Positions 40,346 to 61,819 of a DNA stretch of 64,000 nt are shown here, piece after piece. The position numbers and the translations under genes were made by a program. The stretch's first letter is position 1. The number at the start of each line of letters is the position of its first letter. The notes beneath the pieces were generated by a model. It ran no database searches. It was not told where the DNA came from and saw only the letters and a list, made by a program, of their open reading frames with translations. Source of the DNA: a virus; the IMG/VR virus record IMGVR_UViG_3300044539_000240; one strand, written 5' to 3'.

Positions 40346-41326
40346 TTATATTAAATCTTTCAATCTGTCACCATATAAATTTATAACTCTTTTTAAGAAA
40401 GCGTCAGGATTTTTTCTAATATACTCCAAAACATCATAACGAATATTTTTTGAATATTTTCCAAATAATTCAGCAATTTTATCAACTTTTTGACCTCTTT
40501 CTTTGTTATACCTAAAGTTATTTATTTTATTTACATCTATAATCGGAAAAGTAATAGTTTTTCTATTTCCTGATAGAGCATCATTATGAGATAATGATAT
40601 CGAAGAACTAACTTTACCTGAATTTGCTTTTCTCAACAACATATCCATAACTTCTTCGTTATTTTTTACAGTGTATTCAATAACATTTCCCGTTTTAGGT
40701 AATACTCCAAATATCCAATTTACATTATTAAAAGAAACTTGCATCATTTGATTTTTATAAAAATCATATTCAGGTCCTTTTTTCATTAAATCATATGGTT
40801 TTTTAATACCTTCAACTGATAATGTATCATCTTCTGAAATACCTTGTAACGCAACTTTTAAACCTTTATTTAATGACCCTAGTGAATATCTTTCCCCGGG
40901 AATTGTGAGTTTAACAGAATAAGGAACCCCTTCAATCATAATGTCAGCCATAGTACCTTCTCGATTACCTTCAGTTGTTGGTATTGCAACTCCACCGGTA
41001 AATAACCCAGCCATCAAACCTTCAAAGAAGAACCCACGACCATCAGTTTCCTCTTGTAAACTAATAAAATATTGATAAAATCGAATTCTATCAACCATTT
41101 TTTTAACATCTAAATTTAAATTAACGTCAGTCCCGTCAGTAGAAAAATCATAAGTACCAATACCCTCAGAATTTAATATTTTTGGTATAACCTTAGCCGC
41201 TTGTGTTTTACTTTTTGGAATTGGGGAAATTGTCGGCATAACAACCTCTAAAGATTTTGCAACATCTACAATATTTTGTTCCTTTAAGTATAAATTAAAT
41301 TGAGATTCGGTAATTTTAATTTTCAT
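40346..41326 (-). CDS. N-terminal motif family member (MKIKITESQFNLYL), 326 aa
   Basis: K-I-T-E-S-Q; TATTTATAAAT immediately 5' of ATG on the coding strand. Confidence 0.6.
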   Translation of the reverse strand: MKIKITESQFNLYLKEQNIVDVAKSLEVVMPTISPIPKSKTQAAKVIPKILNSEGIGTYDFSTDGTDVNLNLDVKKMVDRIRFYQYFISLQEETDGRGFFFEGLMAGLFTGGVAIPTTEGNREGTMADIMIEGVPYSVKLTIPGERYSLGSLNKGLKVALQGISEDDTLSVEGIKKPYDLMKKGPEYDFYKNQMMQVSFNNVNWIFGVLPKTGNVIEYTVKNNEEVMDMLLRKANSGKVSSSISLSHNDALSGNRKTITFPIIDVNKINNFRYNKERGQKVDKIAELFGKYSKNIRYDVLEYIRKNPDAFLKRVINLYGDRLKDLI

Positions 41327-41346
41327 ATTTATAAATACCTCAATAA

Positions 41347-41374
41347 ATAAAAAACCCCTCGATTAGGAGGGGTT
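41347..41374 (-). terminator. intrinsic terminator downstream of 41382..41657
   Basis: cccctc-gattag-gagggg hairpin; on the minus strand it is followed by a U-run (plus A8). Confidence 0.65.
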
Positions 41375-41381
41375 AGTTAAT

Positions 41382-41657
41382 TTACTCTTCAGTTTCTTCA
41401 CCTTTACCTTTGTTAATCCATTTGTCTACCGAACCGATACCAAATGAACCTAAAACTAACCACATAAAGGCGTTGAAGATAAACTCGTTTATTACTAGGT
41501 CTTGACCTAAATAACCTGTGACAATATCCGCAATTGCGAATACAGTCATCATGATGAAGGCTAAAAAGCCAACAACACTTTTCTCATTAATTGAGTTACT
41601 ATCATTGAATAACTCGCTAAAAAATTTTTTCATAGTATTTGGTAATTTACTTAACAA
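41382..41657 (-). CDS. small membrane protein, 2 TM (91 aa)
   Basis: Two hydrophobic helices (VVGFLAFIMMTVFAIADIV; FIFNAFMWLVLGSFGIGSV). Confidence 0.5.
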   Translation of the reverse strand: MLSKLPNTMKKFFSELFNDSNSINEKSVVGFLAFIMMTVFAIADIVTGYLGQDLVINEFIFNAFMWLVLGSFGIGSVDKWINKGKGEETEE

Positions 41658-41884
41658 TAAATATCAAAAAAACACTATTTATCTAAAAAACTTATAACAT
41701 GGCAAAAGTTAATACAGGTTCAAACTCATCAGTTAAATTAGAGACTTCAAAAGTTAGTCGTCCGGGTGTTCATTCAAAAACTAAGACATCTAAGTTAAAA
41801 CAATCTAAAAACTACAAGAAGTCATACAAAGGACAAGGTAAATAGTTTGTTTTCAAATCAAAAAAATTAACTATATTTCTTATT

Positions 41885-42172
41885 ATGTTAGATAAGAAAC
41901 GAAGATTCTTTCGCCTAATCGAAAGTTACATTAACGATTTCCGTGGAGACGCGGTTAGAGAATTCTATGGGGATAAGGCACGAATTATCGTTCACTCGAT
42001 GAAAACCGGAGTAACAGATAATTCTATTATGTTGGAGGTTGTTATCTATTTAGGTGATATCATCAATGAAGATGTGATGAATGATACACTTGCTCATGTT
42101 TTAATTCAAGATTCCATTGTGTATTTTTTCCCGGATTCTAAAATTAGTACCTATGTTAGATTTGACGTTTAA
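41885..42172 (+). CDS. hypothetical protein (95 aa)
   Basis: A 48-aa Lys-rich mini-ORF (41699..41845, MAKVNTGSNSSVK...) lies upstream. Confidence 0.4.
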   Translation: MLDKKRRFFRLIESYINDFRGDAVREFYGDKARIIVHSMKTGVTDNSIMLEVVIYLGDIINEDVMNDTLAHVLIQDSIVYFFPDSKISTYVRFDV

Positions 42173-42480
42173 GCTATTCTAGATTTTTTTAAAGAGTCAT
42201 GAAGTTCATTATTCTCTTTTTGTAAGAACTCAACTTTTATTGCTAATTGAGCAACGGATTCGGTTAATTTTAAGATAGTTTCTCTCATAATATCCTTCTC
42301 TTTACTACTTTCTTGTAATAAAACTTCTAATTTCCCAATTCTATCTCTACAATCATGTCTGATAAAATCTTCATCTTTTTCTTTTCTTAACGCTCTTTTT
42401 TCGTAAAATCTCCAAGCACTTGCGGAACCTAATACTGTCAATGCGGTAATTAAGACGGTCCAAACTGATTCGTTTTGCAT
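42169..42480 (-). CDS. hypothetical protein with N-terminal TM helix and coiled coil (103 aa)
   Basis: ORF convergent with 41885..42172. Confidence 0.45.
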   Translation of the reverse strand: MQNESVWTVLITALTVLGSASAWRFYEKRALRKEKDEDFIRHDCRDRIGKLEVLLQESSKEKDIMRETILKLTESVAQLAIKVEFLQKENNELHDSLKKSRIA

Positions 42481-42635
42481 ATTCTAAACTATTTCTAAAT
42501 AAATATACCATTGTTAATAAAAAAATGGTACTTTGGTCGAGAAGCGAATAATTATTATTCTTAAAAGAATAATAATATAACAATAAAATATAATAAAAAA
42601 CTAAAAAAAAAAATAAGCACTAGTACTAGAACTAG

Positions 42636-42887
42636 TTAGGCGAAATCTACACAACATTCAAAACCTAACACACCCTCCAAAGTTTCTTGGACATTTGTTG
42701 GTCTATAAGATTCTCTCGGTAATGGTGATTTAATTTGGACAAACAATGCAAATGAATCCGGAACCCATTTACTTAAATTTTTATCATACTTAAACGTGGG
42801 TGTCATATCAAAATCACATATTGTAACCCCGCTATATGAAATCCCTAAAACCGTTTCACATAATCGTTTTACTCTATCTTTGTCCAT
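42636..42887 (-). CDS. hypothetical protein (about 84 aa, MDKDRVKRLCETVLG...)
   Basis: Track ORF begins at a GTG inside the upstream gene. The first ATG (42887) overlaps the upstream stop by 19 nt (coupled genes, not a frameshift). Confidence 0.45.
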   Translation of the reverse strand: MDKDRVKRLCETVLGISYSGVTICDFDMTPTFKYDKNLSKWVPDSFALFVQIKSPLPRESYRPTNVQETLEGVLGFECCVDFA

Positions 42888-43252
42888 GTCATATCTGAAT
42901 TTAAAATGACAGAATAAACGTGTTTCTGTCTCCACGTATTGGGTTCAATGAGAGATAAGAACTTATTACCTTTAACATCTTCATAGAGGTGGTAAATTTG
43001 ACCAATAATGGGTTCAAAACGATAAGATGACTCATAGACCTCTTGGTTAAGAATAAATGAATTATAAAGGTTCTCTGCGTCTCTCATGAGTTCTTTATAT
43101 TTTGTGTCATAAATTTTGTTCACCCGGTCGGTCCCGTTTTTCTTAAATGATGTTAAGTCGGGGACATCTATCTTTGGTGCACCAACATGAGATGGGTACG
43201 AAAGTAAATTCGCCTTTAACTCTACCTTGTCGATGTGTGATTGTGTTGACAT
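42869..43252 (-). CDS. hypothetical protein (127 aa)
   Basis: ORF upstream of and overlapping 42636..42887. Confidence 0.45.
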   Translation of the reverse strand: MSTQSHIDKVELKANLLSYPSHVGAPKIDVPDLTSFKKNGTDRVNKIYDTKYKELMRDAENLYNSFILNQEVYESSYRFEPIIGQIYHLYEDVKGNKFLSLIEPNTWRQKHVYSVILNSDMTWTKIE

Positions 43253-43312
43253 AAAAAAAAAGTGTCCCTAATTGGAACACTAATTATAAATTATATTTTT
43301 TGAAAGTTCAAC

Positions 43313-43813
43313 TTATTGACCTTTAATCATTGAGATTCCATGTTTTAAGAATTCTTTAGCTCTTGCAGATACATGATTCATCATATAAACCTTTTCGATG
43401 TCTTTAACTAACTCTTCACCATGTTCATTCTCCTTGTAAAGTTCAATGATTTTATCCATGGCTTTATTACACTCTTTCTTTGTTTCATCAAAATAGTTGT
43501 AAGGTTTGAAACCCTTTAAATGATTCATAATTTCAGACGCTAAATGTTCTCCACCATCCGAAACTTTTGGGTGTAATCTAAGAGTTTTCAATAACTCAAG
43601 TTTATCAACTAATCCGTTAACACCATTTCTTCTAATTGTAACACCATCAATATAATCTTCTGACTCATCGTCACCCATTATATCATCCAATGTTTTAACA
43701 TTTCCACCGTGGCAGAATTTTCTATCTTCTTTTTCTTCAGATTGTTCAATCATATAAAGTTTTTTGATTGAGTCAATTTCTGATTCCGTAATTGTAAATC
43801 TTTTAGTTCCCAT
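43313..43813 (-). CDS. N-terminal motif family member (MGTKRFTITESEIDSI), 166 aa
   Basis: T-I-T-E-S-E; GATATATTTATAGAC immediately upstream of ATG. Confidence 0.55.
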   Translation of the reverse strand: MGTKRFTITESEIDSIKKLYMIEQSEEKEDRKFCHGGNVKTLDDIMGDDESEDYIDGVTIRRNGVNGLVDKLELLKTLRLHPKVSDGGEHLASEIMNHLKGFKPYNYFDETKKECNKAMDKIIELYKENEHGEELVKDIEKVYMMNHVSARAKEFLKHGISMIKGQ

Positions 43814-43833
43814 GTCTATAAATATATCAATAA

Positions 43834-44559
43834 TTATATTATTTCATGAAGAAACCTCATTTTTTCTTCGTTAGTTAGTTCTTCTGTTGTAAAAGAGAAT
43901 GGGTCATACCCTAAAGTTAGGAAAAATTGTTTATGATATTCATAAACTTTTTTAGCGGTTTCCATAGTATAAAGTGAATTAAATTTATATGGTCGAGAAC
44001 TAATATAGTTATTTTTGGATAAAAAATTATCAATATACCCTGAAGATAATAGGGCACTATCTTTAATAAAATCAATTTTACTAATATCTTCTATAATGTT
44101 TTCCATTCTAATAAAATCAGATGGAATAGTTACATCAAAATTATATTTTGAAATGTAACTGTCAAGAATTACTTTATCCCTTTTAGACTCAATCCCAAAT
44201 TTTGGTTTTATTTCTTTATAAGAAAATAATTCATTTATGAAAATTGTAAAATTATCAACCATTAAGTTATGTTTATCTTTAAAATAAACCAATGATTTAC
44301 CTGAACCAACAAAATACAAAAAAACACCTAACATTCTATCATAAGGGTTCCGAATACTACAAATCACTTTATAATCAGAATATTCATTTGTTGGTAATGT
44401 TAACACATGAGATTGGTATTGAGCACTTTTAGGTAAATCTTTGTTACCCAACACTCCTGTGTAGTCAAAATCAAAATGTCTAAAAATATGGGCAGTTGCT
44501 TTAGTCCCACACCTTTCAGGTGCCCACCAAATTGTTTTATGTTTGTGAGAAATGTTCAT
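43834..44559 (-). CDS. putative PAPS-dependent sulfotransferase-like protein (241 aa)
   Basis: 5'-PSB-like WWAPERCGTKA and 3'-PB-like IRNPYDRMLGVFLYF (R-N-P-x-D-R). Assignment tentative. Confidence 0.4.
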   Translation of the reverse strand: MNISHKHKTIWWAPERCGTKATAHIFRHFDFDYTGVLGNKDLPKSAQYQSHVLTLPTNEYSDYKVICSIRNPYDRMLGVFLYFVGSGKSLVYFKDKHNLMVDNFTIFINELFSYKEIKPKFGIESKRDKVILDSYISKYNFDVTIPSDFIRMENIIEDISKIDFIKDSALLSSGYIDNFLSKNNYISSRPYKFNSLYTMETAKKVYEYHKQFFLTLGYDPFSFTTEELTNEEKMRFLHEII

Positions 44560-44576
44560 ATTAAGTATTTATTGGT

Positions 44577-45218
44577 ATGAAAAACATTATTTTAACTTTA
44601 GGATTTATTCTGATGTCTTCACTATTATTTAGCCAAGATACTATTAGAATTAAACACACTAATTATACAACCGTATTTAGTAAAACTAAACATTACCCGG
44701 TCTTAGTTGAATGGTGGACAACAAAGTCTATGGTGACTTGTAAAACACCTCTCAAACGAAAAGATAACTTTAAACCGGACCCTCAATTACCAAAAGAAAC
44801 AGATTTATTAAAAGATTATATTGGTAGTGGTACCGACCGAGGTCATATGATGCCAGCAGCAGATAATCTTTGTCAAACACCACAAGTTCAAGATGAGTGT
44901 TTCTACTTTTCAAATATGTCGGCACAATATCATTCGTTAAATGCTGGTGATTGGAAATCATTAGAAACATTAACTCGTAAGTTAGCTACCGAACAAGATA
45001 GTATTAAAGTTTGGTGTGGGAATGTTGGTGAGATTAAGAGAATTGGTAGAGTATCGGTTCCTAAACAATGTTGGAAAGTTGTTTACATAAAAAAAAGTAA
45101 CACATACTACTCATATCTTTTTGATAACACTACAAATAAACCAGATGGTATTGAAAATAATTTAGTTAAAATTGAAGTCATTGAGAAGTTAACCGGATTT
45201 AAATTTAATGTAAAATAA
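44577..45218 (+). CDS. secreted DNA/RNA non-specific endonuclease (Serratia NucA/NUC1 family)
   Basis: Signal peptide MKNIILTLGFILMSSLLFSQ; active-site motif TDRGHMMPAADN (DRGH with catalytic His) and downstream Asn/Glu residues. Confidence 0.7.
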   Translation: MKNIILTLGFILMSSLLFSQDTIRIKHTNYTTVFSKTKHYPVLVEWWTTKSMVTCKTPLKRKDNFKPDPQLPKETDLLKDYIGSGTDRGHMMPAADNLCQTPQVQDECFYFSNMSAQYHSLNAGDWKSLETLTRKLATEQDSIKVWCGNVGEIKRIGRVSVPKQCWKVVYIKKSNTYYSYLFDNTTNKPDGIENNLVKIEVIEKLTGFKFNVK

Positions 45219-45221
45219 AAT

Positions 45222-45248
45222 AACCCCTCTTCGGAGGGGTTATTTATT
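45222..45248. terminator. bidirectional intrinsic terminator
   Basis: aacccctc-ttcg-gaggggtt hairpin with tetraloop, T-rich 3' flank, between convergent genes. Confidence 0.7.
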
Positions 45249-45682: not shown

Positions 45683-46024
45683 TTAAAAATCGTTAGTTTT
45701 AATCATATCCATATTAGCATCGTATACACTAAATCTTATTGATGTTTTATCATTATCAATACCAAGATAAGGTAATAATCTCCTAATATGGTGGTCAACC
45801 ATCCAATGTTCATCAAAATTAAATTTATCCCATAAATCATCTTCTTCTTTTGGTTCATTCAAATAAATGTTCAAATAAATGTTAAGGTGTAAAGTATCTT
45901 CAAGAACATCAAAAGGGTTATCACTATTGTGGACTTCAATTTCACCAACAATAGGGTAGATGCTTTTAATAACATCACTATTAACTAATTTTTCAAGTCC
46001 TTTAATTTGAAAATCGTTTATCAT
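45683..46024 (-). CDS. hypothetical protein (113 aa)
   Basis: ATGA overlap with both neighbours; internal 12 nt direct repeat (NIYLNIYLN). Confidence 0.5.
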   Translation of the reverse strand: MINDFQIKGLEKLVNSDVIKSIYPIVGEIEVHNSDNPFDVLEDTLHLNIYLNIYLNEPKEEDDLWDKFNFDEHWMVDHHIRRLLPYLGIDNDKTSIRFSVYDANMDMIKTNDF

Positions 46025-46386
46025 AAGTAATAATCTATTGTGTTAACGGGAATTTTAAACGTTTCAACAAACCACTCTTTAAACCCTTCTTTCCAATTAT
46101 CGTTAAAATAACCTTCTAATGAGTTAAGAAGTCCTTGGTCTTCAACATACAACATTGGACTTAATGGTTTTCGGTAATCTGAAGCTCCGGTCCAATAGTC
46201 TTCACCATATAACCTGAACAATGTTTCATCATCCATATAATCACCTAAATAAAATTCAATTGCGTCTTGTTCCTGACCCCAATCATCAGTTAAATGAGTC
46301 CAATTAATATTCTCAACATCCAAAGTGTTGTTTAGGTAATTTTTAACCGTTTGATTTAATTTACTTTCCGTTATTATGTATTTCAT
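46021..46386 (-). CDS. N-terminal motif family member (MKYIITESKLNQTVKNYLNNTLDVENINWTHL), paralog of 58537..58908
   Basis: Roughly 30 identical N-terminal residues shared with 58537..58908. Confidence 0.6.
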   Translation of the reverse strand: MKYIITESKLNQTVKNYLNNTLDVENINWTHLTDDWGQEQDAIEFYLGDYMDDETLFRLYGEDYWTGASDYRKPLSPMLYVEDQGLLNSLEGYFNDNWKEGFKEWFVETFKIPVNTIDYYL

Positions 46387-46658: not shown

Positions 46659-47267
46659 TTATGCGATATATGGTGGTTTTGGACTACTTCCTTTTAAATA
46701 ACCATCTGCAACTTTGGCCAATAAATCACCTGTACCCCAAGTTTTAAGTCCTTTCATTCTAGATAATTCAAATAGACCTACATCATTTTTAAGTCCATCA
46801 ATAATATCATTATATCTTCCATTTTTTAATGTCTTACAAGTAGATTGAATACCATCTCCCTGTGTTTGGTAATTTTTTACACCAACACTATTATAATTTG
46901 TTGCACCAGCCATTTTTTGTGTAGTGTTAAATGGATTATTAGTGGCCTTACCACCTTCCGCTTGTCTCCAAGCATACATAAATGACATATTATCTTTAGT
47001 AGGTTTTGCACCAACACATGATAAAACTTCTTTATAGAAATCATCATCTGTTGTTGTTATTGATTTTATATCACTTTCTTTATCACCTAACATTGACGGA
47101 TTGTCCTTAATTTTATCAGTTGAATCTGTAGAAGTGGATGATTTAGGATTCAATATTTTACCTACATAATCTTTAATGATGTCAGCAGCACCTTTACCTG
47201 TTACTTGTTTTGAAATCATATCAATTAAATCTTGTTCAGTTAACCTAACTTTATATTTTTTTCCCAT
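46659..47267 (-). CDS. N-terminal motif family member (MGKKYKVRLTEQDLIDMI), 202 aa
   Basis: R-L-T-E-Q; CTATTTATAGAT immediately upstream. Confidence 0.55.
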   Translation of the reverse strand: MGKKYKVRLTEQDLIDMISKQVTGKGAADIIKDYVGKILNPKSSTSTDSTDKIKDNPSMLGDKESDIKSITTTDDDFYKEVLSCVGAKPTKDNMSFMYAWRQAEGGKATNNPFNTTQKMAGATNYNSVGVKNYQTQGDGIQSTCKTLKNGRYNDIIDGLKNDVGLFELSRMKGLKTWGTGDLLAKVADGYLKGSSPKPPYIA

Positions 47268-47300: not shown

Positions 47301-47324
47301 AAACCCCCATACGGGGGTTTTTTT
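47301..47324. terminator. intrinsic terminator (ccccc-atac-ggggg plus T7)
   Basis: Hairpin directly after the cyclophilin stop codon. Confidence 0.6.
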
Positions 47325-47757
47325 AATTTAATATGGTAATTGAGTTGATTTTATCACCTTGTTGAATTGAATCAACAATTTCTAAACCTTCAGTTACTCT
47401 CCCAAAACAAGTATGGTTACCATCTAAATGTTGAGTACCTTGTCTACTATGACAAATGAAGAATTGTGAACCACCTGTATTTCTTCCGGCATGTGCCATA
47501 GATAATACTCCTCTATCGTGGAATTGGTTTGATGAAGTAACCTCACAAGGGATGTTATATCCCGGACCACCGGTACCTGTACCATTAGGACATCCACCTT
47601 GGATTACGAAATTAGGAATAACTCTATGGAAATTTAATCCATCATAGAATTTTTTACCAATTAAATCTTTGAAGTTGTTTACTGTGATTGGAGTTTCATT
47701 GTCGTATAGTTCGGCAATCATATCTCCTTTGTCTGTAGAAATTTTTACTTTAGTCAT
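47323..47757 (-). CDS. cyclophilin-type peptidyl-prolyl cis-trans isomerase
   Basis: FHRVIPNFVIQGGCPNGTGTGGPGY, GVLSMAHAGRNTGGSQFFI, HLDGNHTCFGRV: canonical cyclophilin signatures. Confidence 0.85.
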   Translation of the reverse strand: MTKVKISTDKGDMIAELYDNETPITVNNFKDLIGKKFYDGLNFHRVIPNFVIQGGCPNGTGTGGPGYNIPCEVTSSNQFHDRGVLSMAHAGRNTGGSQFFICHSRQGTQHLDGNHTCFGRVTEGLEIVDSIQQGDKINSITILN

Positions 47758-47801: not shown

Positions 47802-47859
47802 ATTAAGAATCAATGTCTGAGTTCTCAATTATTAAGAATCAATGTCTGAGTTCTCAATC
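47802..47859. repeat. perfect tandem duplication of a 29 nt unit (attaagaatcaatgtctgagttctcaat[tc]) that includes the last 9 codons and stop of gene 47832..48098
   Basis: Copy 1 is 47802-47830 and copy 2 is 47831-47859, identical except for the final nucleotide. Confidence 0.8.
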
Positions 47860-48098
47860 ATTATAACTTCAACATCTAAACCAACATAATTTTTTATTTT
47901 ATCACGAATTAATAATTGGTATTTTGTTTTTGATTTACTCATTAAATAATTTTTCAATTTAATTAAAACATATATGGAACCGTTATCCGTCATTTCAACA
48001 CCAACTTTTATTGACAATGGAACCTTAATATCCTCAACGATTTCTTTAATTGTGGATTTTATCCTTTCTTTTTGTTTTTCACTAATAATAACATCCAT
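47832..48098 (-). CDS. hypothetical protein (88 aa)
   Basis: One nt after the stop of 48100 (TAA-N-ATG junction); its 3' end is tandemly duplicated. Confidence 0.5.
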   Translation of the reverse strand: MDVIISEKQKERIKSTIKEIVEDIKVPLSIKVGVEMTDNGSIYVLIKLKNYLMSKSKTKYQLLIRDKIKNYVGLDVEVIMIENSDIDS

Positions 48099-48099: not shown

Positions 48100-49131
48100 C
48101 TATTCAGGATTTAACGAATATAACCTAATGAAATTTCTTCTTAACTTTTCACCCATCTTATTTATTGTTGGTTGGAAATATTTCATTAAATCCAAGATAT
48201 TTTCGGTGTTCATTATTTTTTTATCCAAAGGATTGTTATATCCCGTCTTTTTACTAAATTCATAGTAAGCAATAAAATACGTGTGAAGTGTTTTTAAAAG
48301 GGTATTTTGTTCTTCTTGAGGTAAATCTTCAATAAGTTCCAAAATATATTCATAATAATCGCTAGCATCAAAGTTAATCATCCCCTGACAATATTGCCAA
48401 TATTTGGTAGTTTTGAATTGTTCAAATGGCATTCTCAATCTTTTACTATACGCTTCTTGAGACATCGCTCTTACTTCATAAGGTTCAGACATATACAATA
48501 AAGATAAAAATTGTTTCCAAACAGAAAGAACTTCTTCGTTTAGTCCGGTGTCAAACATCTCAAAAGGTTTTTTCATAAATGATAAAGTGGTATCCAAACC
48601 TTTTTCACCTTTTAATGCTCTGTTGTAATATTCATACATATGATTGAGTTCATGTAATACAGAATCCCTAAAATCATACATCATCTCATCAATATCTTCA
48701 AAATCTTTATTGATTATAAATTGAAACTCAAAACCTGCAACCAATGACATATGAATCTCATCCGAAAAACTTTTTGGTAAATATTTGCTAGGTTCTTTTA
48801 TATAAGAACCATTATCAATCATATCTGCATAAGCTAAAACTTGGAATCCTTCAGGGATTGGATTCTCATCCAATCTTTCAAAAGAAAATTTGATTATAAT
48901 TTCTTCAATTGGTAGTTCAATAAAATCTTCCAAATTAGATTTATAAATTGGGAAAATATCTTTTAGAGATAATTTAAGTGTTTCCTCTATTTTTTTATCT
49001 GAATTAAATAAACTCTTAACTTTTCCACTAACAAAGTCGTAAATTAGATTTGTAAATGGGATAGACGCACGGGAAACCCCTAAGTCTTCGGTTAGTAATT
49101 TGTATTGTGATTCTGTAATGATATATTTCAT
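48100..49131 (-). CDS. N-terminal motif family member (MKYIITESQYKLLTE) with HExxH motif (VLHELNHMYEYY); possible metallopeptidase effector, 343 aa
   Basis: Family N-terminus; HELNH; GTATTTATAAAAT upstream. Confidence 0.55.
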   Translation of the reverse strand: MKYIITESQYKLLTEDLGVSRASIPFTNLIYDFVSGKVKSLFNSDKKIEETLKLSLKDIFPIYKSNLEDFIELPIEEIIIKFSFERLDENPIPEGFQVLAYADMIDNGSYIKEPSKYLPKSFSDEIHMSLVAGFEFQFIINKDFEDIDEMMYDFRDSVLHELNHMYEYYNRALKGEKGLDTTLSFMKKPFEMFDTGLNEEVLSVWKQFLSLLYMSEPYEVRAMSQEAYSKRLRMPFEQFKTTKYWQYCQGMINFDASDYYEYILELIEDLPQEEQNTLLKTLHTYFIAYYEFSKKTGYNNPLDKKIMNTENILDLMKYFQPTINKMGEKLRRNFIRLYSLNPE

Positions 49132-51019: not shown

Positions 51020-51880
51020 TTAATTACCTACTCTTAATATGTCCGTATTGTATCCTAAATTACCTAATAATTCACGAACATCTTTAGTAAAATCACTCGA
51101 GTATCTCCATCCGTTACTTTTATAAGTTAATGTGATATACCCTCCAGCACTACCACCTGATAATACAAATTTTACTGAGTGTAATACATGGGAATTAGGG
51201 AGTGCTCTAATTTTCTTTTTTATTTCTTTATTTAATGTATTTTTAATCCATTCATCAACACCATCATATTCAAATGAACCTCTTATATTTAAATCCAATC
51301 TTCCATGAGCTGGACTACCAAGTTCTATACCGGTAAAATTAGTTAATCCATCAATAAATTCTTGTGATAAATTTGATGCGTTATAACTTTCTTCAGATTT
51401 GTCACGAATTGCTTTATCCCAATCAACTTTAAAATAACCACGTACAATATAAGGAGACTCTTCAGTTAAATTAAGAGTTATCCATTCAGGTAGTTTTAAC
51501 CTTTCAATAAAAAAAGTAATCGACTTTTTATATTTTTCAAGAAAAAGCCCTTTGTTTCTAAGATTTGGCATTTGGTGAATGCCTTTTTCAGCCAATGACC
51601 TCCCAAGAATACTCATATTACGATAAGAACTATAATATCTAGGGGTAAAATCTTCAAGAGCATAATCTTTAGCAAATTCTTCAATATGAGTTTTAATCAA
51701 TAAAGAAAGCGGATATTGACCTATTTCATCTCCATGTGTTTTTTTAACCCACGGCCTAAAATAACTAAGAAAAACCTCAATAAAGTCTTCATCCTCGTAT
51801 TCACTTGCATTAAAATTTTCCAAAACGGTTTTTACAATTCTATTAAGGTCAGATTCGGTAAGTGTGTGTATTCTTTTCAT
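51020..51880 (-). CDS. N-terminal motif family member (MKRIHTLTESDLNRIVKTVL), 286 aa
   Basis: T-L-T-E-S-D; AAATCTATTTATAGGTA upstream. Confidence 0.55.
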   Translation of the reverse strand: MKRIHTLTESDLNRIVKTVLENFNASEYEDEDFIEVFLSYFRPWVKKTHGDEIGQYPLSLLIKTHIEEFAKDYALEDFTPRYYSSYRNMSILGRSLAEKGIHQMPNLRNKGLFLEKYKKSITFFIERLKLPEWITLNLTEESPYIVRGYFKVDWDKAIRDKSEESYNASNLSQEFIDGLTNFTGIELGSPAHGRLDLNIRGSFEYDGVDEWIKNTLNKEIKKKIRALPNSHVLHSVKFVLSGGSAGGYITLTYKSNGWRYSSDFTKDVRELLGNLGYNTDILRVGN

Positions 51881-51925: not shown

Positions 51926-52129
51926 TTATTTTTTGGTTTGATTAAATCTTGGTTTTTCTGATTTCTTTTCTTTCGGTAATTCTATTTCACAACAAGGATT
52001 ACTATTCCCCTGAAATGAATTGATTTCTCTAATTAATGCGTCACTTAGAAGATTACCCCAAACATTATTGTAATGGGATAGTAAGTCACTATATGCGTTT
52101 TCCGTTTCCATGTCTCTAAATGTTATCAA
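51926..52129 (-). CDS. hypothetical protein (67 aa)
   Basis: Overlaps the upstream gene by 14 nt. Confidence 0.4.
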   Translation of the reverse strand: MITFRDMETENAYSDLLSHYNNVWGNLLSDALIREINSFQGNSNPCCEIELPKEKKSEKPRFNQTKK

Positions 52130-52559
52130 TTAAAACAAATCCAACAAGACCTTCAATGTATTTTATAACTTCATCTTCTGAACAAGAAATAAGAGGTTTA
52201 AAATCGATTGTGTTCTCATCCTCACTCGAGAATGTAATGAATTGTAAATCATCTAACACCTTTCTACAATTGATTTCAACTCGGTCTTTCTCCATGGTCG
52301 GGTCCAAGATGACATCAATTCCATTTGACAATTTTTTTCTAAAATCATCGTATTGGTCAGGGTGTAATAATATCTCAAGTTCCGGATGCATTATTATTGT
52401 ATCCGCACCAACTCGTCTTGATGATTGATGTATCTTATTTGACACCATCATTATTTTGTTGATAAGTGTTTTATTCCACTCTCGTTGAGCGTGTGGGGTT
52501 GGTTCTTCAACACCCATCCAACCTCTTAAGTCCCATTCTTCTATGTGTGAGTTTTCCAT
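52116..52559 (-). CDS. hypothetical protein. Start corrected to MENSHIEEWDL.
   Basis: The first 18 codons of the longest ORF are a translation of the terminator hairpin at 52600-52625. Confidence 0.5.
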   Translation of the reverse strand: MENSHIEEWDLRGWMGVEEPTPHAQREWNKTLINKIMMVSNKIHQSSRRVGADTIIMHPELEILLHPDQYDDFRKKLSNGIDVILDPTMEKDRVEINCRKVLDDLQFITFSSEDENTIDFKPLISCSEDEVIKYIEGLVGFVLIDNI

Positions 52560-52631: not shown

Positions 52632-53003
52632 TTAACGTTTTGTCGGAATTCTTCGAATTGAAACCGGGACATCGAACATATTGACAATCTCGTCCCAAGT
52701 ATTATCAACCAATCCATCATATTCATCTCTATTAAGAGGTCTTTCAGTATTAACCCAAATTGTGATGGCATATTCATCTCTATCAGTTAACCTATAAACC
52801 TTTGCATCATGTATCAATTCATTTTGTGGTGTTAATACATTATCCAAATATTTTTGGATTAGTTTCAATTTTCTTTCTTCAGGAGAATATTTGGATTCGG
52901 TTTCAATAATATTTGGGGTTTTGTTAATCTTATGATGTAACTCCCAATTAATAATTGATTCCCGTAATACTTTCTTTATGATTTTGTTAAGTTCCATATA
53001 CAA
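52632..53003 (-). CDS. hypothetical protein (123 aa)
   Basis: ORF followed by a terminator. Confidence 0.5.
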   Translation of the reverse strand: MYMELNKIIKKVLRESIINWELHHKINKTPNIIETESKYSPEERKLKLIQKYLDNVLTPQNELIHDAKVYRLTDRDEYAITIWVNTERPLNRDEYDGLVDNTWDEIVNMFDVPVSIRRIPTKR

Positions 53004-54990: not shown

Positions 54991-55383
54991 ATGGGAACAC
55001 ACAGAGTAAATTTTATAAAAAGTAATAAATTTTGGTTTGCGGATTTTACTGAAACCGAACTTACACCTAACATAAATGGAGTTAATCAAAGAAAACTATT
55101 ACCATTAACTCGTAATGGTTGGGATGAGTGGGTAGAAATAGTTTCCGAAAGTGATGATAATTTTTGGATGATTGTCTCCAATTCTGAACTTGTAGGGGGG
55201 ACCGAACTTAAATACCTTAATTTAACTACGGGAAACCCAAATCCAAACCAATGTGGGAATTGTTACGAATTCAAATCTTACAAAGGGGTTGAATATAATA
55301 TTAAATTTTTTATTTGTTCAAATGGGTTGGATTTTGTATTTGATGAAACTCCTTCTTCATGGTTTTTTAAAAGAGAATATTAA
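54991..55383 (+). CDS. hypothetical protein. Start corrected to MGTHRVNFIK (about 130 aa).
   Basis: The upstream part of the track ORF is low-complexity and overlaps a minus-strand mini-gene. Confidence 0.45.
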   Translation: MGTHRVNFIKSNKFWFADFTETELTPNINGVNQRKLLPLTRNGWDEWVEIVSESDDNFWMIVSNSELVGGTELKYLNLTTGNPNPNQCGNCYEFKSYKGVEYNIKFFICSNGLDFVFDETPSSWFFKREY

Positions 55384-55688
55384 GACTGAGTAAATTTTAC
55401 ATCGACACCATACTTCCATTCAAACCATTCAGAGATAAATTTATATGCCTCTTCATCGTTAGGGAAAAATAAATCCGAGAATCCACGACCAAACGAACTA
55501 TTAACATATAGTCTTCCATCAGTATGGTCATATTCCATCATAACCTCATCTTCAATATCATCTACTTCACCAGGATGATAGATAATAATAAACTCTTCGA
55601 AGTCAGATTCATACCCAATCCTATTTTCAATATATTCTTTTCTTAGGTCGTTTAATTTACTTTCTTTTATAATGTATTTCATATTCAA
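55380..55688 (-). CDS. N-terminal motif family member (MNMKYIIKESKLNDL), 102 aa
   Basis: I-I-K-E-S-K-L; GTATTTATTGAAT upstream. Confidence 0.55.
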   Translation of the reverse strand: MNMKYIIKESKLNDLRKEYIENRIGYESDFEEFIIIYHPGEVDDIEDEVMMEYDHTDGRLYVNSSFGRGFSDLFFPNDEEAYKFISEWFEWKYGVDVKFTQS

Positions 55689-56646: not shown

Positions 56647-57453
56647 TTTTAACATTTCGTAAGCCCTAGCTAATCGTGTTAGTCCAATTCCCGCACCAAA
56701 TCTTGGGAAGAAATCATGAGATAAAAACTCTTCAAGTTCTTTTTCAACCCTTTCTTTACCAAATAGTTCAAACAACTTGGATGAATAACCTCCACCTTCA
56801 ATGGTATAAAACATTTCTCTCATCTTTTCAACATCACAACTTCTCTCAGCAGAACCAATTGTTTCTTGCCCAAACATAATAACATCAACTTTATTAAAAA
56901 TGTTATCTTCCCCGTGTTTCATATTCCAAAAGGGATTAGTTCTTATTGGAAAATTTTGAAGTGATACAATAGGTCCTTTTTCTTTCCACATTCTTGATTC
57001 GTGTTCATCTTCCAATATTCTAACACCACCATATTCCTCACACACATCTTCATAATTAACCTCAACCGGTGTTTCAAATCCAAGATGTTCAAGTAAGTCT
57101 TGTTCTAATTTCAACATTGTGTTCATGTCACCTTTAGATTCAAATTCAAACATTGGGAAAATTAATTCATGACGACCCGGGATAGGATTTTTCTCTTCTC
57201 TATATGAAGTTGAGATACAAAATACTCCGTCCCATTCAGGGTTTTTTAATAATTCATACTCCAACCACATCTGTCCGGTTTGTGGTAATGGCCATATTTC
57301 ACCACTATATTCGAATGTTTTTACCGAATGTGGATTTTCACATGCTGCCAAGATTGATAATCTACTTTGCGTAGGGACTTCCTTAAAGTTTCTTTCAAGG
57401 AAAAAAGTTCTCATTTTTTGTACCAGTTCGTGGTAAGTTTCTGTGTTTCTCAT
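56644..57453 (-). CDS. class II aminoacyl-tRNA-synthetase-like catalytic core without anticodon-binding domain (AsnA / EpmA / archaeal AS-AR-like), 269 aa
   Basis: Motif 2-like STSYREEKNPIPGRHELIFPMFEFE (cf. fRNE..RHnPEFTmlE) and motif 3-like GAGIGLTRLARA (cf. GGGIGxxRL). Confidence 0.6.
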   Translation of the reverse strand: MRNTETYHELVQKMRTFFLERNFKEVPTQSRLSILAACENPHSVKTFEYSGEIWPLPQTGQMWLEYELLKNPEWDGVFCISTSYREEKNPIPGRHELIFPMFEFESKGDMNTMLKLEQDLLEHLGFETPVEVNYEDVCEEYGGVRILEDEHESRMWKEKGPIVSLQNFPIRTNPFWNMKHGEDNIFNKVDVIMFGQETIGSAERSCDVEKMREMFYTIEGGGYSSKLFELFGKERVEKELEEFLSHDFFPRFGAGIGLTRLARAYEMLK

Positions 57454-57496
57454 TTTTTGTTTGATTTTTATTTATTTATTTATGTTCACATATCGG

Positions 57497-57528
57497 CAAA
57501 AAAAATCCCTTCAAATAATGAAGGGATT
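57497..57528 (-). terminator. intrinsic terminator (aatcccttca-aataa-tgaagggatt)
   Basis: 10 bp stem; U-run on the minus strand. Downstream of a 51-aa mini-ORF (about 57641..57793, MKHILNNLSEEEKNAIREQ...). Confidence 0.6.
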
Positions 57529-57904
57529 AAAGACAACCAATATCGGTTGTAATATTATTTGTATTTCTATTTTTTTTCTTTTTATACATCGATAATAAGT
57601 ATATGTAAGTTGTCTAAAAATACAATACTTTTTTTATTTTTTATTTTCTTCTTTTACTAATGGTTTTGAGTCACCAAGTTTAGAATTAATTAATTTTGAG
57701 AAATTCTCAGTCATAACTTTCATTCCTCCTGTGTGTTGTTCACGGATGGCATTTTTTTCTTCTTCAGATAAATTATTCAATATGTGTTTCATATGTTCGT
57801 TTTATTATAAATAGTTTGTTATGATGGAAAATAATTGTCAAACACCCTATTATAGTGGAAAATAAAGGACAATTAACCTTATTTTTTACTTTTTAATGGA
57901 AAAT

Positions 57905-58213
57905 TTAGTAAATTTTGTGAACTTTAATCCCATAATTCTCCAAAAACCACTCCTCCATTGTTGTTTTGGTTCTAACCCAACCTAAATCAAAAACATTTTC
58001 AAGGTGATTTACAATATGTTTTTTAAGTCCCGGTATTTCAATATACAAATTACCTGAATCCGTGGAATAATAAAAAATCACTTTATTATTTTCATTAACA
58101 AAATGTTTTAAATGAAGTCTTGGTTCATCAATTTCTTTTAATCCACCAAAAAAACCTCCAATATATTTGGAAATAAATTTATCTAATTGGTTTTCTGTTA
58201 TAACATATTTCAT
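57905..58213 (-). CDS. N-terminal motif family member (MKYVITENQLDKFI). Start corrected.
   Basis: The internal Met restores the family N-terminus and gives a TAA-N-ATG junction with the upstream gene. Confidence 0.55.
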   Translation of the reverse strand: MKYVITENQLDKFISKYIGGFFGGLKEIDEPRLHLKHFVNENNKVIFYYSTDSGNLYIEIPGLKKHIVNHLENVFDLGWVRTKTTMEEWFLENYGIKVHKIY

Positions 58214-58214
58214 A

Positions 58215-58535
58215 TTAAGCACATTTGTTCTTATGATATTTAACCAAGTAATCACCAAACTTGTCTACAAAATAATAGTAGAGAGAATCATTTTCTTCAG
58301 GTTTTAAAACGTAATCAAAGTCATTAACAAAGTAATCGTGATACATTTCAACCAAAGAATCACAGGCATTACTAACAAATTCACCAATATCATCATATTC
58401 ACATATGTCCATTTCATCAAGGATTCCCCACTCCAAATCATTCATCATGTTTTTAAATGGTAATCTTCTTCGTACTTCCGGTGATAACGATTCTGTTAAT
58501 AAAACGTATTGAGATTCAGTTATAACATATTTCAT
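58215..58535 (-). CDS. N-terminal motif family member (MKYVITESQYVLLTESL). Start corrected.
   Basis: N-terminus nearly identical to 48100..49131; TAA-N-ATG junction. Confidence 0.55.
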   Translation of the reverse strand: MKYVITESQYVLLTESLSPEVRRRLPFKNMMNDLEWGILDEMDICEYDDIGEFVSNACDSLVEMYHDYFVNDFDYVLKPEENDSLYYYFVDKFGDYLVKYHKNKCA

Positions 58536-58536
58536 C

Positions 58537-58908
58537 TTAGTTGATTGTTTTAACTGGCAAATCAAAATTCTTCATAAACCAATTTTTAAATGGTTCGTGC
58601 CACATATCACCAAAATAACCGTTTAATTTTATCTCATAATCATACTCAATACTGACCATAGGACAAATCTCTCTAGCAAGACTTTCCGGATTAAAGTAAT
58701 CACATTCGTGCCAATAAAAACAACCTTCATCTTCTCCTTCATAGTCCCCTATGTAAAACACAACCCGATTAACATCATCCCATTCTTCACCTGTCTCTAA
58801 ATCATAATCTAATGGATGTGTCCAATTAATATCATCTATATCAAAAAGACTATCCAAGTAATTGGTGATTGTTTCGTCCAGTTTACTTTCAGTTATTATG
58901 TATTTCAT
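58537..58908 (-). CDS. N-terminal motif family member (MKYIITESKLDETITNYLDSLFDIDDINWTHP), paralog of 46021..46386
   Basis: GTATTTATAATT upstream; first of a three-gene tandem array. Confidence 0.6.
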   Translation of the reverse strand: MKYIITESKLDETITNYLDSLFDIDDINWTHPLDYDLETGEEWDDVNRVVFYIGDYEGEDEGCFYWHECDYFNPESLAREICPMVSIEYDYEIKLNGYFGDMWHEPFKNWFMKNFDLPVKTIN

Positions 58909-58927
58909 AATTATAAATACTCAACAA

Positions 58928-58953
58928 TAAAAAAACCCACCTCAATGGGTGGG
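58928..58953 (-). terminator. intrinsic terminator (cccacc-tcaat-gggtggg; U-run on the minus strand)
   Basis: Downstream of 58962..59450. Confidence 0.6.
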
Positions 58954-58961
58954 ATAATTTA

Positions 58962-59450
58962 TTAACCTCGTCTTCCTGATGATGTTCCTCGTCCACCACT
59001 TTGTGGTCTAACTGAAGGTGTCTCAGGTCTATATTCTCTTTGTGGTCTAACTGAAGGAGTTTCGGTTCTTGTTGATGGTTGTCTAACAGATTCAGTTCTC
59101 ACTTGGGGACTTCCTCGATATCCATTACTTCTCGCAACTCTATGTCCACGGTTATAATACACCGGATGTGAATAATAATAGTTATGAATTCTTGGTCTCC
59201 AATATGGGTCATCAAAATAAAACCACCAAGTATTACCGTAGTACCAATTATTTCCCCAATAAAATCTCCAATTATCGTAATAATATGGGTCTAATTGGTT
59301 TGAAAATGTAGATAATGGGACTTGAACTTGCTGTCCCAATTCATTAACAGCCAAGATATGTGTTATTCTTGGTTGAGATGACACGTTTTGATAATTACCA
59401 CAGGATGATAATGTTAAAATCAAAAACAATAATAATATAAATTTTTTCAT
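58962..59450 (-). CDS. lipoprotein with Tyr/Trp/Asn-rich core and R/S/P-rich repetitive tail (162 aa)
   Basis: MKKFILLLFLILTLSSC lipobox; repeats TETPSVRPQ. Confidence 0.55.
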   Translation of the reverse strand: MKKFILLLFLILTLSSCGNYQNVSSQPRITHILAVNELGQQVQVPLSTFSNQLDPYYYDNWRFYWGNNWYYGNTWWFYFDDPYWRPRIHNYYYSHPVYYNRGHRVARSNGYRGSPQVRTESVRQPSTRTETPSVRPQREYRPETPSVRPQSGGRGTSSGRRG

Positions 59451-59495
59451 AATATATTTTTTTCAAAAATTATGCCAAAAAATAGTTACCTATCT

Positions 59496-60182
59496 TTATT
59501 TTATACCCTCAAAACCTCCACCCTTTGTGTCAATTTTTTCGATAATCTTATTTATTAAATTACCATTTTGTAATAAATGGCGACCAAGCTGAGGGATTGG
59601 AGAATCCACATATTCAATATTCACATTAGGATATTGTTGAATATATTGACTTTGTTTTACGTGTGTTGGTGTATTTTGGTCTACAATAGAATATATTTGA
59701 GTATTATAATTTATATTGGATAAATGATTCCTTAAATTAAGTTTAGAAATATTTTGGTCCAAAAAGCTTACTTTAGACTCTCTCCCATCTCCTTGTTCAA
59801 ATAAAGTATTTTGGTCCAAATAAGTTATTGTGTTTATCCCTATAACTTTATCAACATTTAACATTGTGCCTAAAAGGATGGCCACGTAAGCTCCCACACA
59901 ATTACCCATAAAAATAGTCGTATCATAATTCGTCATGTATTGTGATAACATATCTAATGTTTTCTCAGGTGTATTTCTATCGGAATCAATTCCTTGAAAA
60001 AAGAAAGAATCATTTGTGTCATCAACTTTTAATACATCATATCCCATTGATGCCAAAGAATTCAACATTACCTTAACGTCTTCAACCGGACTTGCAAATA
60101 TTTTATCAGCATGTGCTTGAAACGTTACAATTAAGGTACGATTATTATTAAAATTTTCGTATAAGACTTCTCTTGGTGGCAT
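59496..60182 (-). CDS. hypothetical protein, paralog of 60583..61224 (228 aa)
   Basis: Roughly 45 percent identity across its length to 60583..61224, including IFMGNCxGxxAILxGTMLNVDKVIG and THVKQS. Confidence 0.55.
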   Translation of the reverse strand: MPPREVLYENFNNNRTLIVTFQAHADKIFASPVEDVKVMLNSLASMGYDVLKVDDTNDSFFFQGIDSDRNTPEKTLDMLSQYMTNYDTTIFMGNCVGAYVAILLGTMLNVDKVIGINTITYLDQNTLFEQGDGRESKVSFLDQNISKLNLRNHLSNINYNTQIYSIVDQNTPTHVKQSQYIQQYPNVNIEYVDSPIPQLGRHLLQNGNLINKIIEKIDTKGGGFEGIK

Positions 60183-60215
60183 ATTATCATTTTTAAGTTA
60201 ATGATAAATATAAAG

Positions 60216-60566
60216 TTATTTTGATTTCACAATACTCGCTCCACCACAAATAATAATTTGTTGACCATCTTTAATCCTGTCAAAATAAACACATCCATCT
60301 TTCACCTCAAATTTATTGGTAGTATAAACAACACCGGATGATGTTGTTATTTCGTAAACACCCGTTGGCTCAATAGCAACTACGTAAGTACCTACTTTAA
60401 ATAAAATGAAAATTAATATAATACCGTATAATAATTTTTTGTTCTTAGAGAAAAAGGTTATCATACGACTAATCCATCCCACCATTTTAAACATAACTGA
60501 TGTTGCCATGTCACTAAACTTTTCCAAATCATTCATTTGGTCTTTATCTAATTTAAAATTTTTCAT
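60216..60566 (-). CDS. membrane protein (116 aa)
   Basis: TM helix LYGIILIFILFKVGTYVVAI; sits between the two paralogs. Confidence 0.5.
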   Translation of the reverse strand: MKNFKLDKDQMNDLEKFSDMATSVMFKMVGWISRMITFFSKNKKLLYGIILIFILFKVGTYVVAIEPTGVYEITTSSGVVYTTNKFEVKDGCVYFDRIKDGQQIIICGGASIVKSK

Positions 60567-60582
60567 ATTAATAACGTTTTAT

Positions 60583-61224
60583 TTAATTTTCAATAATCTC
60601 TTCAATTTTAGAGATTAATTTATTTTTTTCTTTAAGATAAGCGGCAACCATTGAACTATTACAATCAACAAACTCTATGTTCACATTAGGACAAGTTAAA
60701 ATATTATTACTTTGTTTTACGTGTGTATCAGTATTTTGAGAAACAATAGAATAAATTTTAGTGTCATAAATTTTATTATCCAAATATGGTTTTAGATTTA
60801 AATATTCTATTGATTGGTCCAAAGAAATAAGTCTGTCTTCTCTACCGTCCTCATTTAACAATAATGTTTTTTGGTCCAAATATGTTGCGGGATTAAATCC
60901 AATAACCTTATCAACATTTAACATAGTACCATACAGAATAGCCGCATGACCTCCACCACAATTTCCCATAAAAATAGTTTTGGTATATCCCGAAATATAT
61001 TCTGATAACTTACCCAAAACTTTTTCCATTGAATCATACGTCCCATCAATACCATTAAAAAAATAATATCCGGTTGTATCGTTAATTTTTAATGTATCGT
61101 AACTTAATTCAGACAAAGTTTTTTTAAACTCATCGACTGTGGTACCAAATACCGTTTTTTCATGAGCTTGAAAGGCAACAACTAAAGTATCACTACCTTT
61201 TATGTCCTCATAAATTGATTCCAT
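60583..61224 (-). CDS. hypothetical protein, paralog of 59496..60182 (213 aa)
   Basis: See 59496..60182. Confidence 0.55.
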   Translation of the reverse strand: MESIYEDIKGSDTLVVAFQAHEKTVFGTTVDEFKKTLSELSYDTLKINDTTGYYFFNGIDGTYDSMEKVLGKLSEYISGYTKTIFMGNCGGGHAAILYGTMLNVDKVIGFNPATYLDQKTLLLNEDGREDRLISLDQSIEYLNLKPYLDNKIYDTKIYSIVSQNTDTHVKQSNNILTCPNVNIEFVDCNSSMVAAYLKEKNKLISKIEEIIEN

Positions 61225-61228
61225 GTAT

Positions 61229-61819
61229 TTAACGAGGTTTGTAAATTGGTTTGATTTTTTCCAAGTCTGATATTAGATTATTTAAAGATGCTGTTTCAGT
61301 ATAAAATTTATTATACAAATCACCCATTTGTTTTTTGTAGTTTGGGTTTTTATTTAATACACCACCTTGTTTCGGTACAGGAATAGCAGATTTAATATTC
61401 TCCAATTCTTTTTTCAATATATGGGCATTAGAATAAATATTTTTTAAATCTACAACACCACCTTTAGCCGCGGATATATCTTTAGCCAATAATCTTGCAT
61501 AGGTGTTAGCAATTCCACTTCCACCTTGGCTTTTTAAATAGTGTTCCAAACTTTTTATATTAGAAGAATGGGTGTTAAATACATTTTTTAACTTATCACC
61601 AACTTTAACTTTTTTTGGGAATGATTGAATTAACATTTGGACCTTACTTGGTAATTGACCCATTAATGGTACACCCACCTTGGCGGCAGGTTTTGAACCA
61701 AATTTAAAAATCTTTTGTAAGATGTTTCTTAATATTTGTTCATTCATCTCAGGCTTATCAGTAACCCTTTTAATAACATTGGCCAATTCTGATTCGGTTA
61801 ACCTTATAATTTTCCCCAT
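61229..61819 (-). CDS. N-terminal motif family member (MGKIIRLTESELANVIKRV), 196 aa
   Basis: R-L-T-E-S-E-L; GTATTTATAATT 15 nt upstream. Confidence 0.55.
   Translation of the reverse strand: MGKIIRLTESELANVIKRVTDKPEMNEQILRNILQKIFKFGSKPAAKVGVPLMGQLPSKVQMLIQSFPKKVKVGDKLKNVFNTHSSNIKSLEHYLKSQGGSGIANTYARLLAKDISAAKGGVVDLKNIYSNAHILKKELENIKSAIPVPKQGGVLNKNPNYKKQMGDLYNKFYTETASLNNLISDLEKIKPIYKPR

Follow-up and report, generated by a model that had tools for sequence, protein, structure and literature searches.

The window analysed here is a stretch of viral DNA of 64,000 nucleotides (nt), IMG/VR record IMGVR_UViG_3300044539_000240, in which an array of genes encodes otherwise dissimilar proteins that begin with nearly the same short peptide, typified by MKYIITES. 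A sequence-only reading of the window had listed 13 such genes, and all of them exist and begin as it claimed. Among the 108 non-overlapping genes of the window, there are 14 occurrences of the core [ILV][TK]E[SNQT] that begin in the first 12 residues, versus 1.0 expected (P ~6e-12), and 10 of the 5-mer [ILV][ILV][TK]E[SNQT], versus 0.08 expected (P ~2e-18); the expectation was taken from the remainder of the same proteins, and the test assumes that genes are independent, although some of them are paralogs. The window is AT-rich (~30% GC), and its similarities assign it to an uncultured phage related to the Flavobacterium myophage vB_FspM_immuto (160 kb; immuto in the following), with ~70% nucleotide identity for some genes and ~18 proteins in common at 31-77% identity. 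Two other viral contigs, IMGVR_UViG_3300042562_001235 (65 kb) and IMGVR_UViG_3300032307_000723 (117.6 kb), are near-identical to parts of the window. The array runs on past the right end of the window, with the further starts MRYVISENRL, MKYIITEQQY, MEYIIDESKL and MKKIIRLTESDLTRLVRRVIKEQ.

The members, named g plus their lower coordinate, are given here with arrows after the Glu residues discussed below. A small paralog family, related over the full length (BLAST E 2e-31 to 2e-4), comprises 46021-46386 (-) (121 aa, MKYIITE↓SKL), 55380-55682 (-) (100 aa, MKYIIKE↓SKL), 57905-58213 (-) (102 aa, MKYVITE↓NQL) and 58537-58908 (-) (123 aa, MKYIITE↓SKLDE), the last with 278 homologs in the protein database. 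The products of 48100-49131 (-) (343 aa, MKYIITE↓SQYKLLTE↓DLGV) and 58215-58535 (-) (106 aa, MKYVITE↓SQYVLLTE↓S) have 37 N-terminal residues in common. The shared tag of the "13 unrelated proteins" therefore stands, but their number was overstated, since the four full-length paralogs and the g48100/g58215 pair leave ~9 independent families; likewise, of the two pairs said to share a longer N-terminal stretch, g48100/g58215 indeed do so, while g46021/g58537 are in fact paralogs throughout. The other tagged genes are 40346-41326 (-) (326 aa, MKIKITE↓SQFNLYLKE↓Q), 43313-43813 (-) (166 aa, N-terminus MGTKRFTITESEI, MGTKRFTITE↓SEIDSIKKLYMIE↓Q), 46659-47267 (-) (202 aa, N-terminus MGKKYKVRLTEQDL, MGKKYKVRLTE↓QDL), 51020-51880 (-) (286 aa, N-terminus MKRIHTLTESDL, MKRIHTLTE↓SDLNRIVKTVLE↓N), 61229-61819 (-) (196 aa, N-terminus MGKIIRLTESEL, MGKIIRLTE↓SELANVIKRV) and 24638-25258 (+) (206 aa, MEFLITE↓TQLKSILTE↓QDK), in which two [IL]xE sites lie 8 residues apart. 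The remaining one, 28273-28899 (-) (208 aa, N-terminus MNNLRQIIKETLE, MNNLRQIIKE↓TLE), begins as had been claimed but carries only a weak form of the tag; in gp099, its homolog in immuto, the first 19 residues are missing, and the start of immuto gp080, MKKSQLRQIIKEAL, resembles its N-terminus. Possible extra members are 47832-48098 (-) (88 aa, MDVIISE↓KQ) and 52632-52997 (-) (121 aa, N-terminus MELNKIIKKVLRES, MELNKIIKKVLRE↓S).

The tag is not confined to the window. A degenerate DNA pattern for MKYIITE[S/T] had at least 118 matching stretches in viral contigs, of which several often fell on the same contig, and many of the contigs among the matches listed (the scope of all viral-contig counts below) are 100-320 kb long. 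In 596 Gb of bacterial and archaeal genomes the same pattern found 20 single sites only, against a rough chance estimate of ~19 that assumes uniform base composition. A general bacterial motif is thus ruled out, and by these pattern searches the tag is phage-specific. When the first 14 residues were trimmed, the 128 distinct sequences (116 MKYIITE-type viral-contig proteins and 12 minus-strand window genes) fell into 40 BLAST clusters, and the tagged proteins of the viral contigs range from 57 to 411 aa.

Structure prediction and the distribution of one cargo domain both bear on how separable the tag is. In the AlphaFold model of g48100 (predicted local distance difference test, pLDDT, 88), residues 1-5 score below 50, residues 1-20 are of low confidence and the fold begins at about residue 21; in that of g58537 (pLDDT 89.6), residues 1-6 are coil and a helix of residues 7-21 starts at E7. 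The two models are unrelated to each other. In a library of 1.84 billion proteins, 71 representatives of the g40346 cargo domain were found. Some follow MKIKITESQ or MGKIIITEQQ tags, others follow MKYIKSYKIFES, MKHLLGFKIFED or KRIIREEID tags, and the domain also occurs without a tag or inside larger proteins beside DUF4314 or PPK2 domains. Similarly, a g48100 homolog in a 634-kb uncultured phage begins MKYIKPYSNFSINE, and its neighbours there carry a tag of their own, MK-x-L-K-x-F-N-E. The 40 clusters, the two models and the cargo with alternative tags largely refute the tag as the first element of one fold, which the sequence-only reading had itself named as the alternative to its proposal; the tag is a separable module on unrelated cargo. 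We consider it likely that it is a functional, modular and phage-specific N-terminal address or processing peptide.

Selection on the tag acts at the protein level. Within the window, its Ser is encoded by both AGT and TCN and its Thr by all four codons. Position 8 is Ser in 108 of the 124 distinct viral-contig starts, even though the search pattern allowed S, T, R, C and W, and these 108 residues are encoded by 74 TCN and 34 AGY codons. Synonymous codons ending in G or C (TAC, ATC, ACC, GAG) are common in the viral-contig starts, as compared with a window genome of 30% GC. The tag is also better conserved than its cargo in three families, with mean column entropies, tag versus rest, of 0.31 versus 1.06, 0.40 versus 1.10 and 0.97 versus 1.44 bits. 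Within families it persists down to 36-43% identity, and the g51020 tag is kept in 115 homologs, down to 43% identity.

The way in which the tag ends points to a protease. T4 gp21, the prohead protease, cuts after L/I-X-E and has such a site near its own N-terminus (PMC9026906). The head module of immuto is of the T4 type, with a gp20 portal, a gp21-like protease and a gp23-like capsid protein; the protease belongs to the T4 gp21 family (35% identity to T-even gp21, E 6e-23), and a gp21-family protease together with a gp22-type core and a gp23-type capsid protein is present in immuto and in ~140 immuto-clade loci. At the N-terminal site of 51 immuto-clade proteases, P3 is L in 38 and I in 13, P2 is mostly T, P1 is E in 51/51, and P1' is S in 27 and G in 15. 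The 13 window tags have I (10) or L (3) at P3, T (11) or K (2) at P2, E at P1 in 13/13 and S at P1' in nine. The claim that the tag ends in the L/I-x-E motif of T4-type prohead proteases, with P3 I or L in 13/13, is therefore correct, and as a sequence pattern the tag matches the invariant L/I-x-E↓S/G site of the clade proteases residue class by residue class. Clade capsid proteins have conserved LLE↓S, GLLE↓G, M-I/L-LE↓N and Q-I/L-V-x-E↓A/Q sites in their propeptide region. In addition, a second [ILVM]xE lies exactly 8 residues past the first in ~11 of the 40 cluster-weighted families, against a background of ~0.8 per position, and in g48100 (MKYIITE↓SQYKLLTE↓DLGV) the confident part of the fold starts just past the second site.

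Upstream of the tagged genes, a TATTTAT element was found in 10 of 13 cases, 4-5 nt from the ATG in most of them (4 nt in g24638) and 15-17 nt from it in g28273 and g61229; the three without it are the internal operon genes g46021, g57905 and g58215. In immuto, TATTTAT precedes the TerL, portal, sheath and tube genes, and of its 26 strict sites there, 16 fall within the structural half of the genome. Across the immuto clade the element stands before the portal gene in 34/43 loci and before gp073 in 42/42, with a distance of 10-21 nt in nearly all of them. TATTTAT is thus probably a late promoter of the phage, and the tagged genes would therefore be made together with the head proteins. Matches to sigma-70-like promoters show no excess in the window (119 versus 118 expected). 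The 4-5 nt spacing, which suggests leaderless or near-leaderless mRNAs, was seen for TATTTAT(A/T) before the ATGs at 1885 (-), 24606 (-), 24638 (+), 26234 (-), 39479 (+), 41326 (-), 43813 (-), 44577 (+), 47267 (-), 49131 (-), 50189 (-), 51880 (-), 52997 (-), 54991 (+), 55682 (-) and 58908 (-). Compact cassettes are formed in this way: at 41327-41374 (-), a terminator hairpin (41353-41374) is followed by GGTATTTATAAAT and then by the g40346 ATG, and the same layout recurs upstream of 47267, 50189 and 58908. That the genes have their own terminators and are otherwise joined by TAA-N-ATG junctions had been noted before; terminator-like hairpins are indeed enriched in the window (25 versus 8.2 +/- 2.9 expected), and g57905 and g58215 follow their upstream genes across TAA-T-ATG (at 58213) and TAA-G-ATG (at 58535), respectively.

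The reading that we favour, at a probability of about 0.45, is by analogy with T4: the shared N-terminus would be a capsid-targeting, protease-cleaved propeptide like the T4 capsid-targeting sequence (CTS). The T4 CTS, MKTYQEFIAE, is the first 10 residues of IPIII (PMC9026906), and in the T-even phages it is the only common part of otherwise diverse internal proteins (PMC3012670). The tagged proteins would be made late, alongside the head proteins, and their short hydrophobic start (M-K-Y-I-I, or basic-x-I/L-x-L) would dock them to the scaffold core while the prohead assembles. Cleavage after the Glu of I/L-T/K-E↓S, by a prohead protease of the T4 gp21 type, would follow, in many families probably with a second cut at the I/L-x-E 8-14 residues further on. 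The mature cargo would stay in the head and may enter the host with the DNA. We infer a gp21/gp22/gp23 module in this phage, as well as docking, cleavage, packaging and injection of the tagged proteins.

Several observations weigh against CTS-like capsid targeting. The tag resembles the T4 CTS in its MK start, an aromatic residue and the I-x-E end, but in nothing else, and with at least 13 tagged genes in 64 kb, and more beyond, the phage greatly exceeds T4, which has few internal proteins. The cargo is in many cases small and acidic. In the predicted fold of the small paralog family the helix runs from E7, so that cleavage at a helix N-terminus would be needed. TATTTAT lies 4-5 nt from the ATG here versus 10-21 nt for head genes, and it precedes untagged genes too. 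Above all, the tag and the head genes were not found together. The 64-kb window has no head genes; the names of the contigs with the at least 118 tag stretches do not overlap those of the ~140 capsid-gene loci; profile hidden Markov models of head proteins detected no head gene in 1 Mb of tag loci, barring a 147-aa capsid-segment-like open reading frame (ORF); neither immuto nor ~2 Mb around the capsid genes of its clade contains class-A tags; and neither a gene-specific pattern scan nor neighbourhood look-ups linked any tag-bearing contig to gp21, gp23 or portal. Packaging and cleavage of the tagged proteins are proposed from sequence, and no virion proteomics of immuto was found in the literature searched. 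Of the parallel to T4 capsid targeting drawn by the sequence-only reading, the modular tag and the protease motif hold, with a TATTTAT element of the head-gene type as further support, but a head module is not linked to the tag contigs.

The 147-aa ORF, 52116-52559 (-), sits inside the tag-gene array and is kept in seven related loci. It shows 42% identity to a 43-residue segment (385-427) of the gp23-like major capsid protein of immuto, and may be a capsid-protein fragment or a decoy-like paralog.

Two other explanations deny that the tag is a module at all or that it acts as a peptide. If all members were divergent paralogs of one family, the tag would be the first strand and helix of a common fold, as the part that is best conserved. 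Such an origin is in keeping with the true paralogy of four window genes, with a largest cluster that comprises 58 of the 128 distinct sequences, and with the helix from E7, which in the small paralog family belongs to the fold; however, homology beyond the tag is found in only four of the 13 genes, the 40 clusters span very different lengths, the g48100 and g58537 models are unrelated with residues 1-20 and 1-6 outside the confident core, and the g40346 cargo carries other tags, none, or lies inside larger proteins. This possibility is already largely refuted, and we regard it as very improbable. Conservation could instead be imposed on the mRNA, either by the needs of translation start on leaderless messages or by recombination that shuffles genes behind a cassette made up of the promoter and the first codons, like the PeSL cassettes of T4. 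The position of TATTTAT 4-5 nt from the ATG in many genes, which suggests leaderless or near-leaderless transcripts, and the compact terminator-promoter-ATG cassettes would suit it. Yet synonymous codons vary freely, with Ser switching between TCN and AGY and G- or C-ending codons common despite 30% GC; the promoterless internal operon genes g46021, g57905 and g58215 carry tags; and untagged genes have the same promoter spacing. A DNA- or mRNA-level explanation was rejected on the codon data and seems to us hardly credible.

The two remaining alternatives accept a peptide signal and send it elsewhere. The tag may dock to some other common partner, such as an assembly factor, a chaperone, a tail or baseplate component or a phage-built compartment, and may stay uncleaved. 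Modularity, conservation and phage specificity fit any shared-partner model equally, no head module is linked to the tag-bearing contigs, and candidate partners are at hand, as immuto encodes GroES/GroEL and the window encodes ClpP and a probable cyclophilin (47323-47757). What such docking leaves unexplained is that dissimilar tag types all end in hydrophobic-x-E followed by S, N or D, and that the second [ILV]xE site is phased; both are expected for a gp21-type protease and therefore count against it, and we judge it unlikely, though it deserves to be kept in view. Far less probable still is an N-terminal degron, by which the phage ClpP (7656-8402 (+)) with a ClpX-type unfoldase would time protein removal. 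The ClpP homolog is full-length (PF00574, E 1e-50) and lies in the same window, and the Met-Lys-aromatic-Ile-Ile start resembles the ClpX N-motif 2, which Flynn et al. reportedly described in 2003 as Met-basic-hydrophobic x3. But there is no evident reason for ~40 conserved families with a degron better conserved than the protein that it would destroy; the conserved T-E-S and the second I/L-x-E fall outside N-motif 2; and neither class-B tags (xxRLTESEL) nor KIFES tags conform to it. In 1 Mb of tag loci, ClpP and the tag did not turn up together, the 150 kb of immuto examined have no annotated ClpP, and ClpX was not found.

For the cargo, the sequence-only reading had proposed anti-defence or host-takeover effectors, a proposal that found no backing: searches of Pfam, PHROGs, NCBIfam and PADLOC returned nothing informative for the tagged proteins, the g48100 and g58537 models had no fold match in the PDB, and in BFVD the g48100 model found uncharacterised phage proteins and nothing else. 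In tblastn searches of 50,697 phage genomes, g48100 matched two huge uncultured phages only, g51020 had no match, g58537 had chance matches only, the 20-aa tag had none and a class-B protein had one at chance level (E = 8). No description of these tags was found in the literature searched with the tag sequences. The g48100 cargo does contain an HExxH motif, and H160-E161-x-x-H164 together with E167 are invariant across 29 homologs, which suggests a zinc metallopeptidase. The plus-strand member g24638 forms a divergent pair with 24001-24606 (-) across a 31-bp spacer that has TATTTAT on both strands; the start of 24001-24606 resembles the DUF4314/SH3-like domain with which the g40346 cargo domain forms a fusion in P0281 and P0285 of other phages.

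Other parts of the window also drew attention. In comparison with the 117.6-kb contig (L097), identity is mosaic, being only 53-73% for 51020-51880, 43834-44559, 59496-60182 and 60583-61224 and 93-99% for their neighbours, which points to local hypervariability or gene replacement inside the array. The ClpP gene adjoins two tandem carbamoyltransferase genes, 3750-5414 (+) and 5418-7007 (+), and the counterpart of the probable cyclophilin gene at the same position in locus L287 is marked PF00160. A run of genes with signal-peptide-like N-termini (29476-36156 (+)) includes a C-type lectin protein and a protein that combines cohesin with Por_Secre_tail, the sorting domain of type IX secretion; homologs exist in immuto. 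These phage-encoded proteins look as if they were exported by the host. Two otherwise different ORFs, 17411-18445 (-) and 57634-57792 (-), have a common N-terminal motif, LSAAEKSDILDQH and LSEEEKNAIREQH, respectively.

In addition to the MKYIITES type, we have noted other N-terminal tags. A second type, MK[YH][IL]xx[FY]xxFE[SN], heads many unrelated ORFs of the 634-kb uncultured phage LR745206 (L004, 232909-273967) and also many homologs of the g40346 cargo (P0311-P0350), for example as MKHLKSFNEG or MKYIKSYKIFES; no description of it was found in the literature searched. Like the window tag, it has an MK start, a hydrophobic pattern and an x-E-S end, and it stands on many unrelated ORFs and on the same cargo families, but it differs in sequence and length and is nearer to the T4 CTS, MKTYQEFIAE. 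A longer motif, ..R[IV]KL[LM]MGYD..KTL[TN]E↓N, begins the products of 10228-11397 (-) and 12655-13170 (-) of the window; a related one, MKKQILSEQF[KR]RMQ[KF]LAGIITE↓S, begins immuto gp083 and gp230 (L003 11675-12139 and L001 25061-25456), and the g40346 homolog P0283 is headed by a similar long start, MSKIKRIQELMGL. The longer motif, which co-occurs with a T4-type head in immuto, may represent a longer propeptide class. At least three codes have been observed (MKYIITES, xRLTESDL and MKYIKSYKIFES), all of which end in x-E↓S. It is a tentative idea, and one that we would put on the unlikely side of even, that large Bacteroidota phages sort dozens of protein families to the capsid, or to another phage-made destination, by lineage-specific N-terminal "address codes".

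If the tag does load capsids, sequence alone would reveal which proteins a large group of uncultured freshwater phages packages and injects, among them phages with genomes of 200-320 kb in which all tagged genes are of unassigned function, and would offer many candidate host-takeover or anti-defence proteins. It would also provide new short tags with which foreign proteins could be loaded into phage heads, a use to which the T4 CTS is put, and would make CTS-type loading an old, expandable feature of T4-type heads and not a T-even peculiarity. Should the address codes prove true, the virion would carry a large, fast-changing arsenal of injected proteins on a scale far above the T4 internal proteins; with a destination other than the capsid, they would amount to a new protein-sorting system in infected cells. 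And if the tag does not load capsids, a phage-specific N-terminal peptide across ~40 families still wants an explanation.

Among known systems, the closest is the T4 CTS, which is carried by IPI, IPII and IPIII and removed by gp21. In both cases a very short MK-starting N-terminal peptide heads otherwise unrelated proteins and has an I/L-x-E end, the gp21 cleavage motif, and in both the cargo is diverse and varies between related phages; the immuto clade, moreover, has the gp20/gp21/gp23 module. The sequences differ, however (MKYIITE↓S here versus MKTYQEFIAE↓A in T4), as do the lengths, with a tag of seven residues, or 15-22 with the second site, versus 10 in T4. The scale also differs, with at least 13 genes in 64 kb plus ~30 further viral-contig clusters, compared with three internal proteins. 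Finally, the internal proteins of T4 are basic, in contrast to the small, acidic products that make up much of the cargo here.

Propeptides of phiKZ, 201phi2-1 and SPN3US, whose proteases are diverged gp21 homologs, offer a second comparison: many head and inner-body proteins are cut there after Glu at short motifs, and redundant sites have been described for phiKZ (PMC9026906). Their motif is S/A-X-E, in contrast to I or L at P3 in 13/13 window tags, and the propeptides are long, lack a common tag and belong to another phage lineage. The N-terminal packaging signals of the phage P1 Dar antirestriction proteins and the cargo-loading peptides of encapsulins are likenesses by analogy only, being unrelated in sequence and having other partners. 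Encapsulin peptides are mostly C-terminal. In these systems, as proposed here, a short terminal peptide sends varied cargo into an HK97-fold shell.

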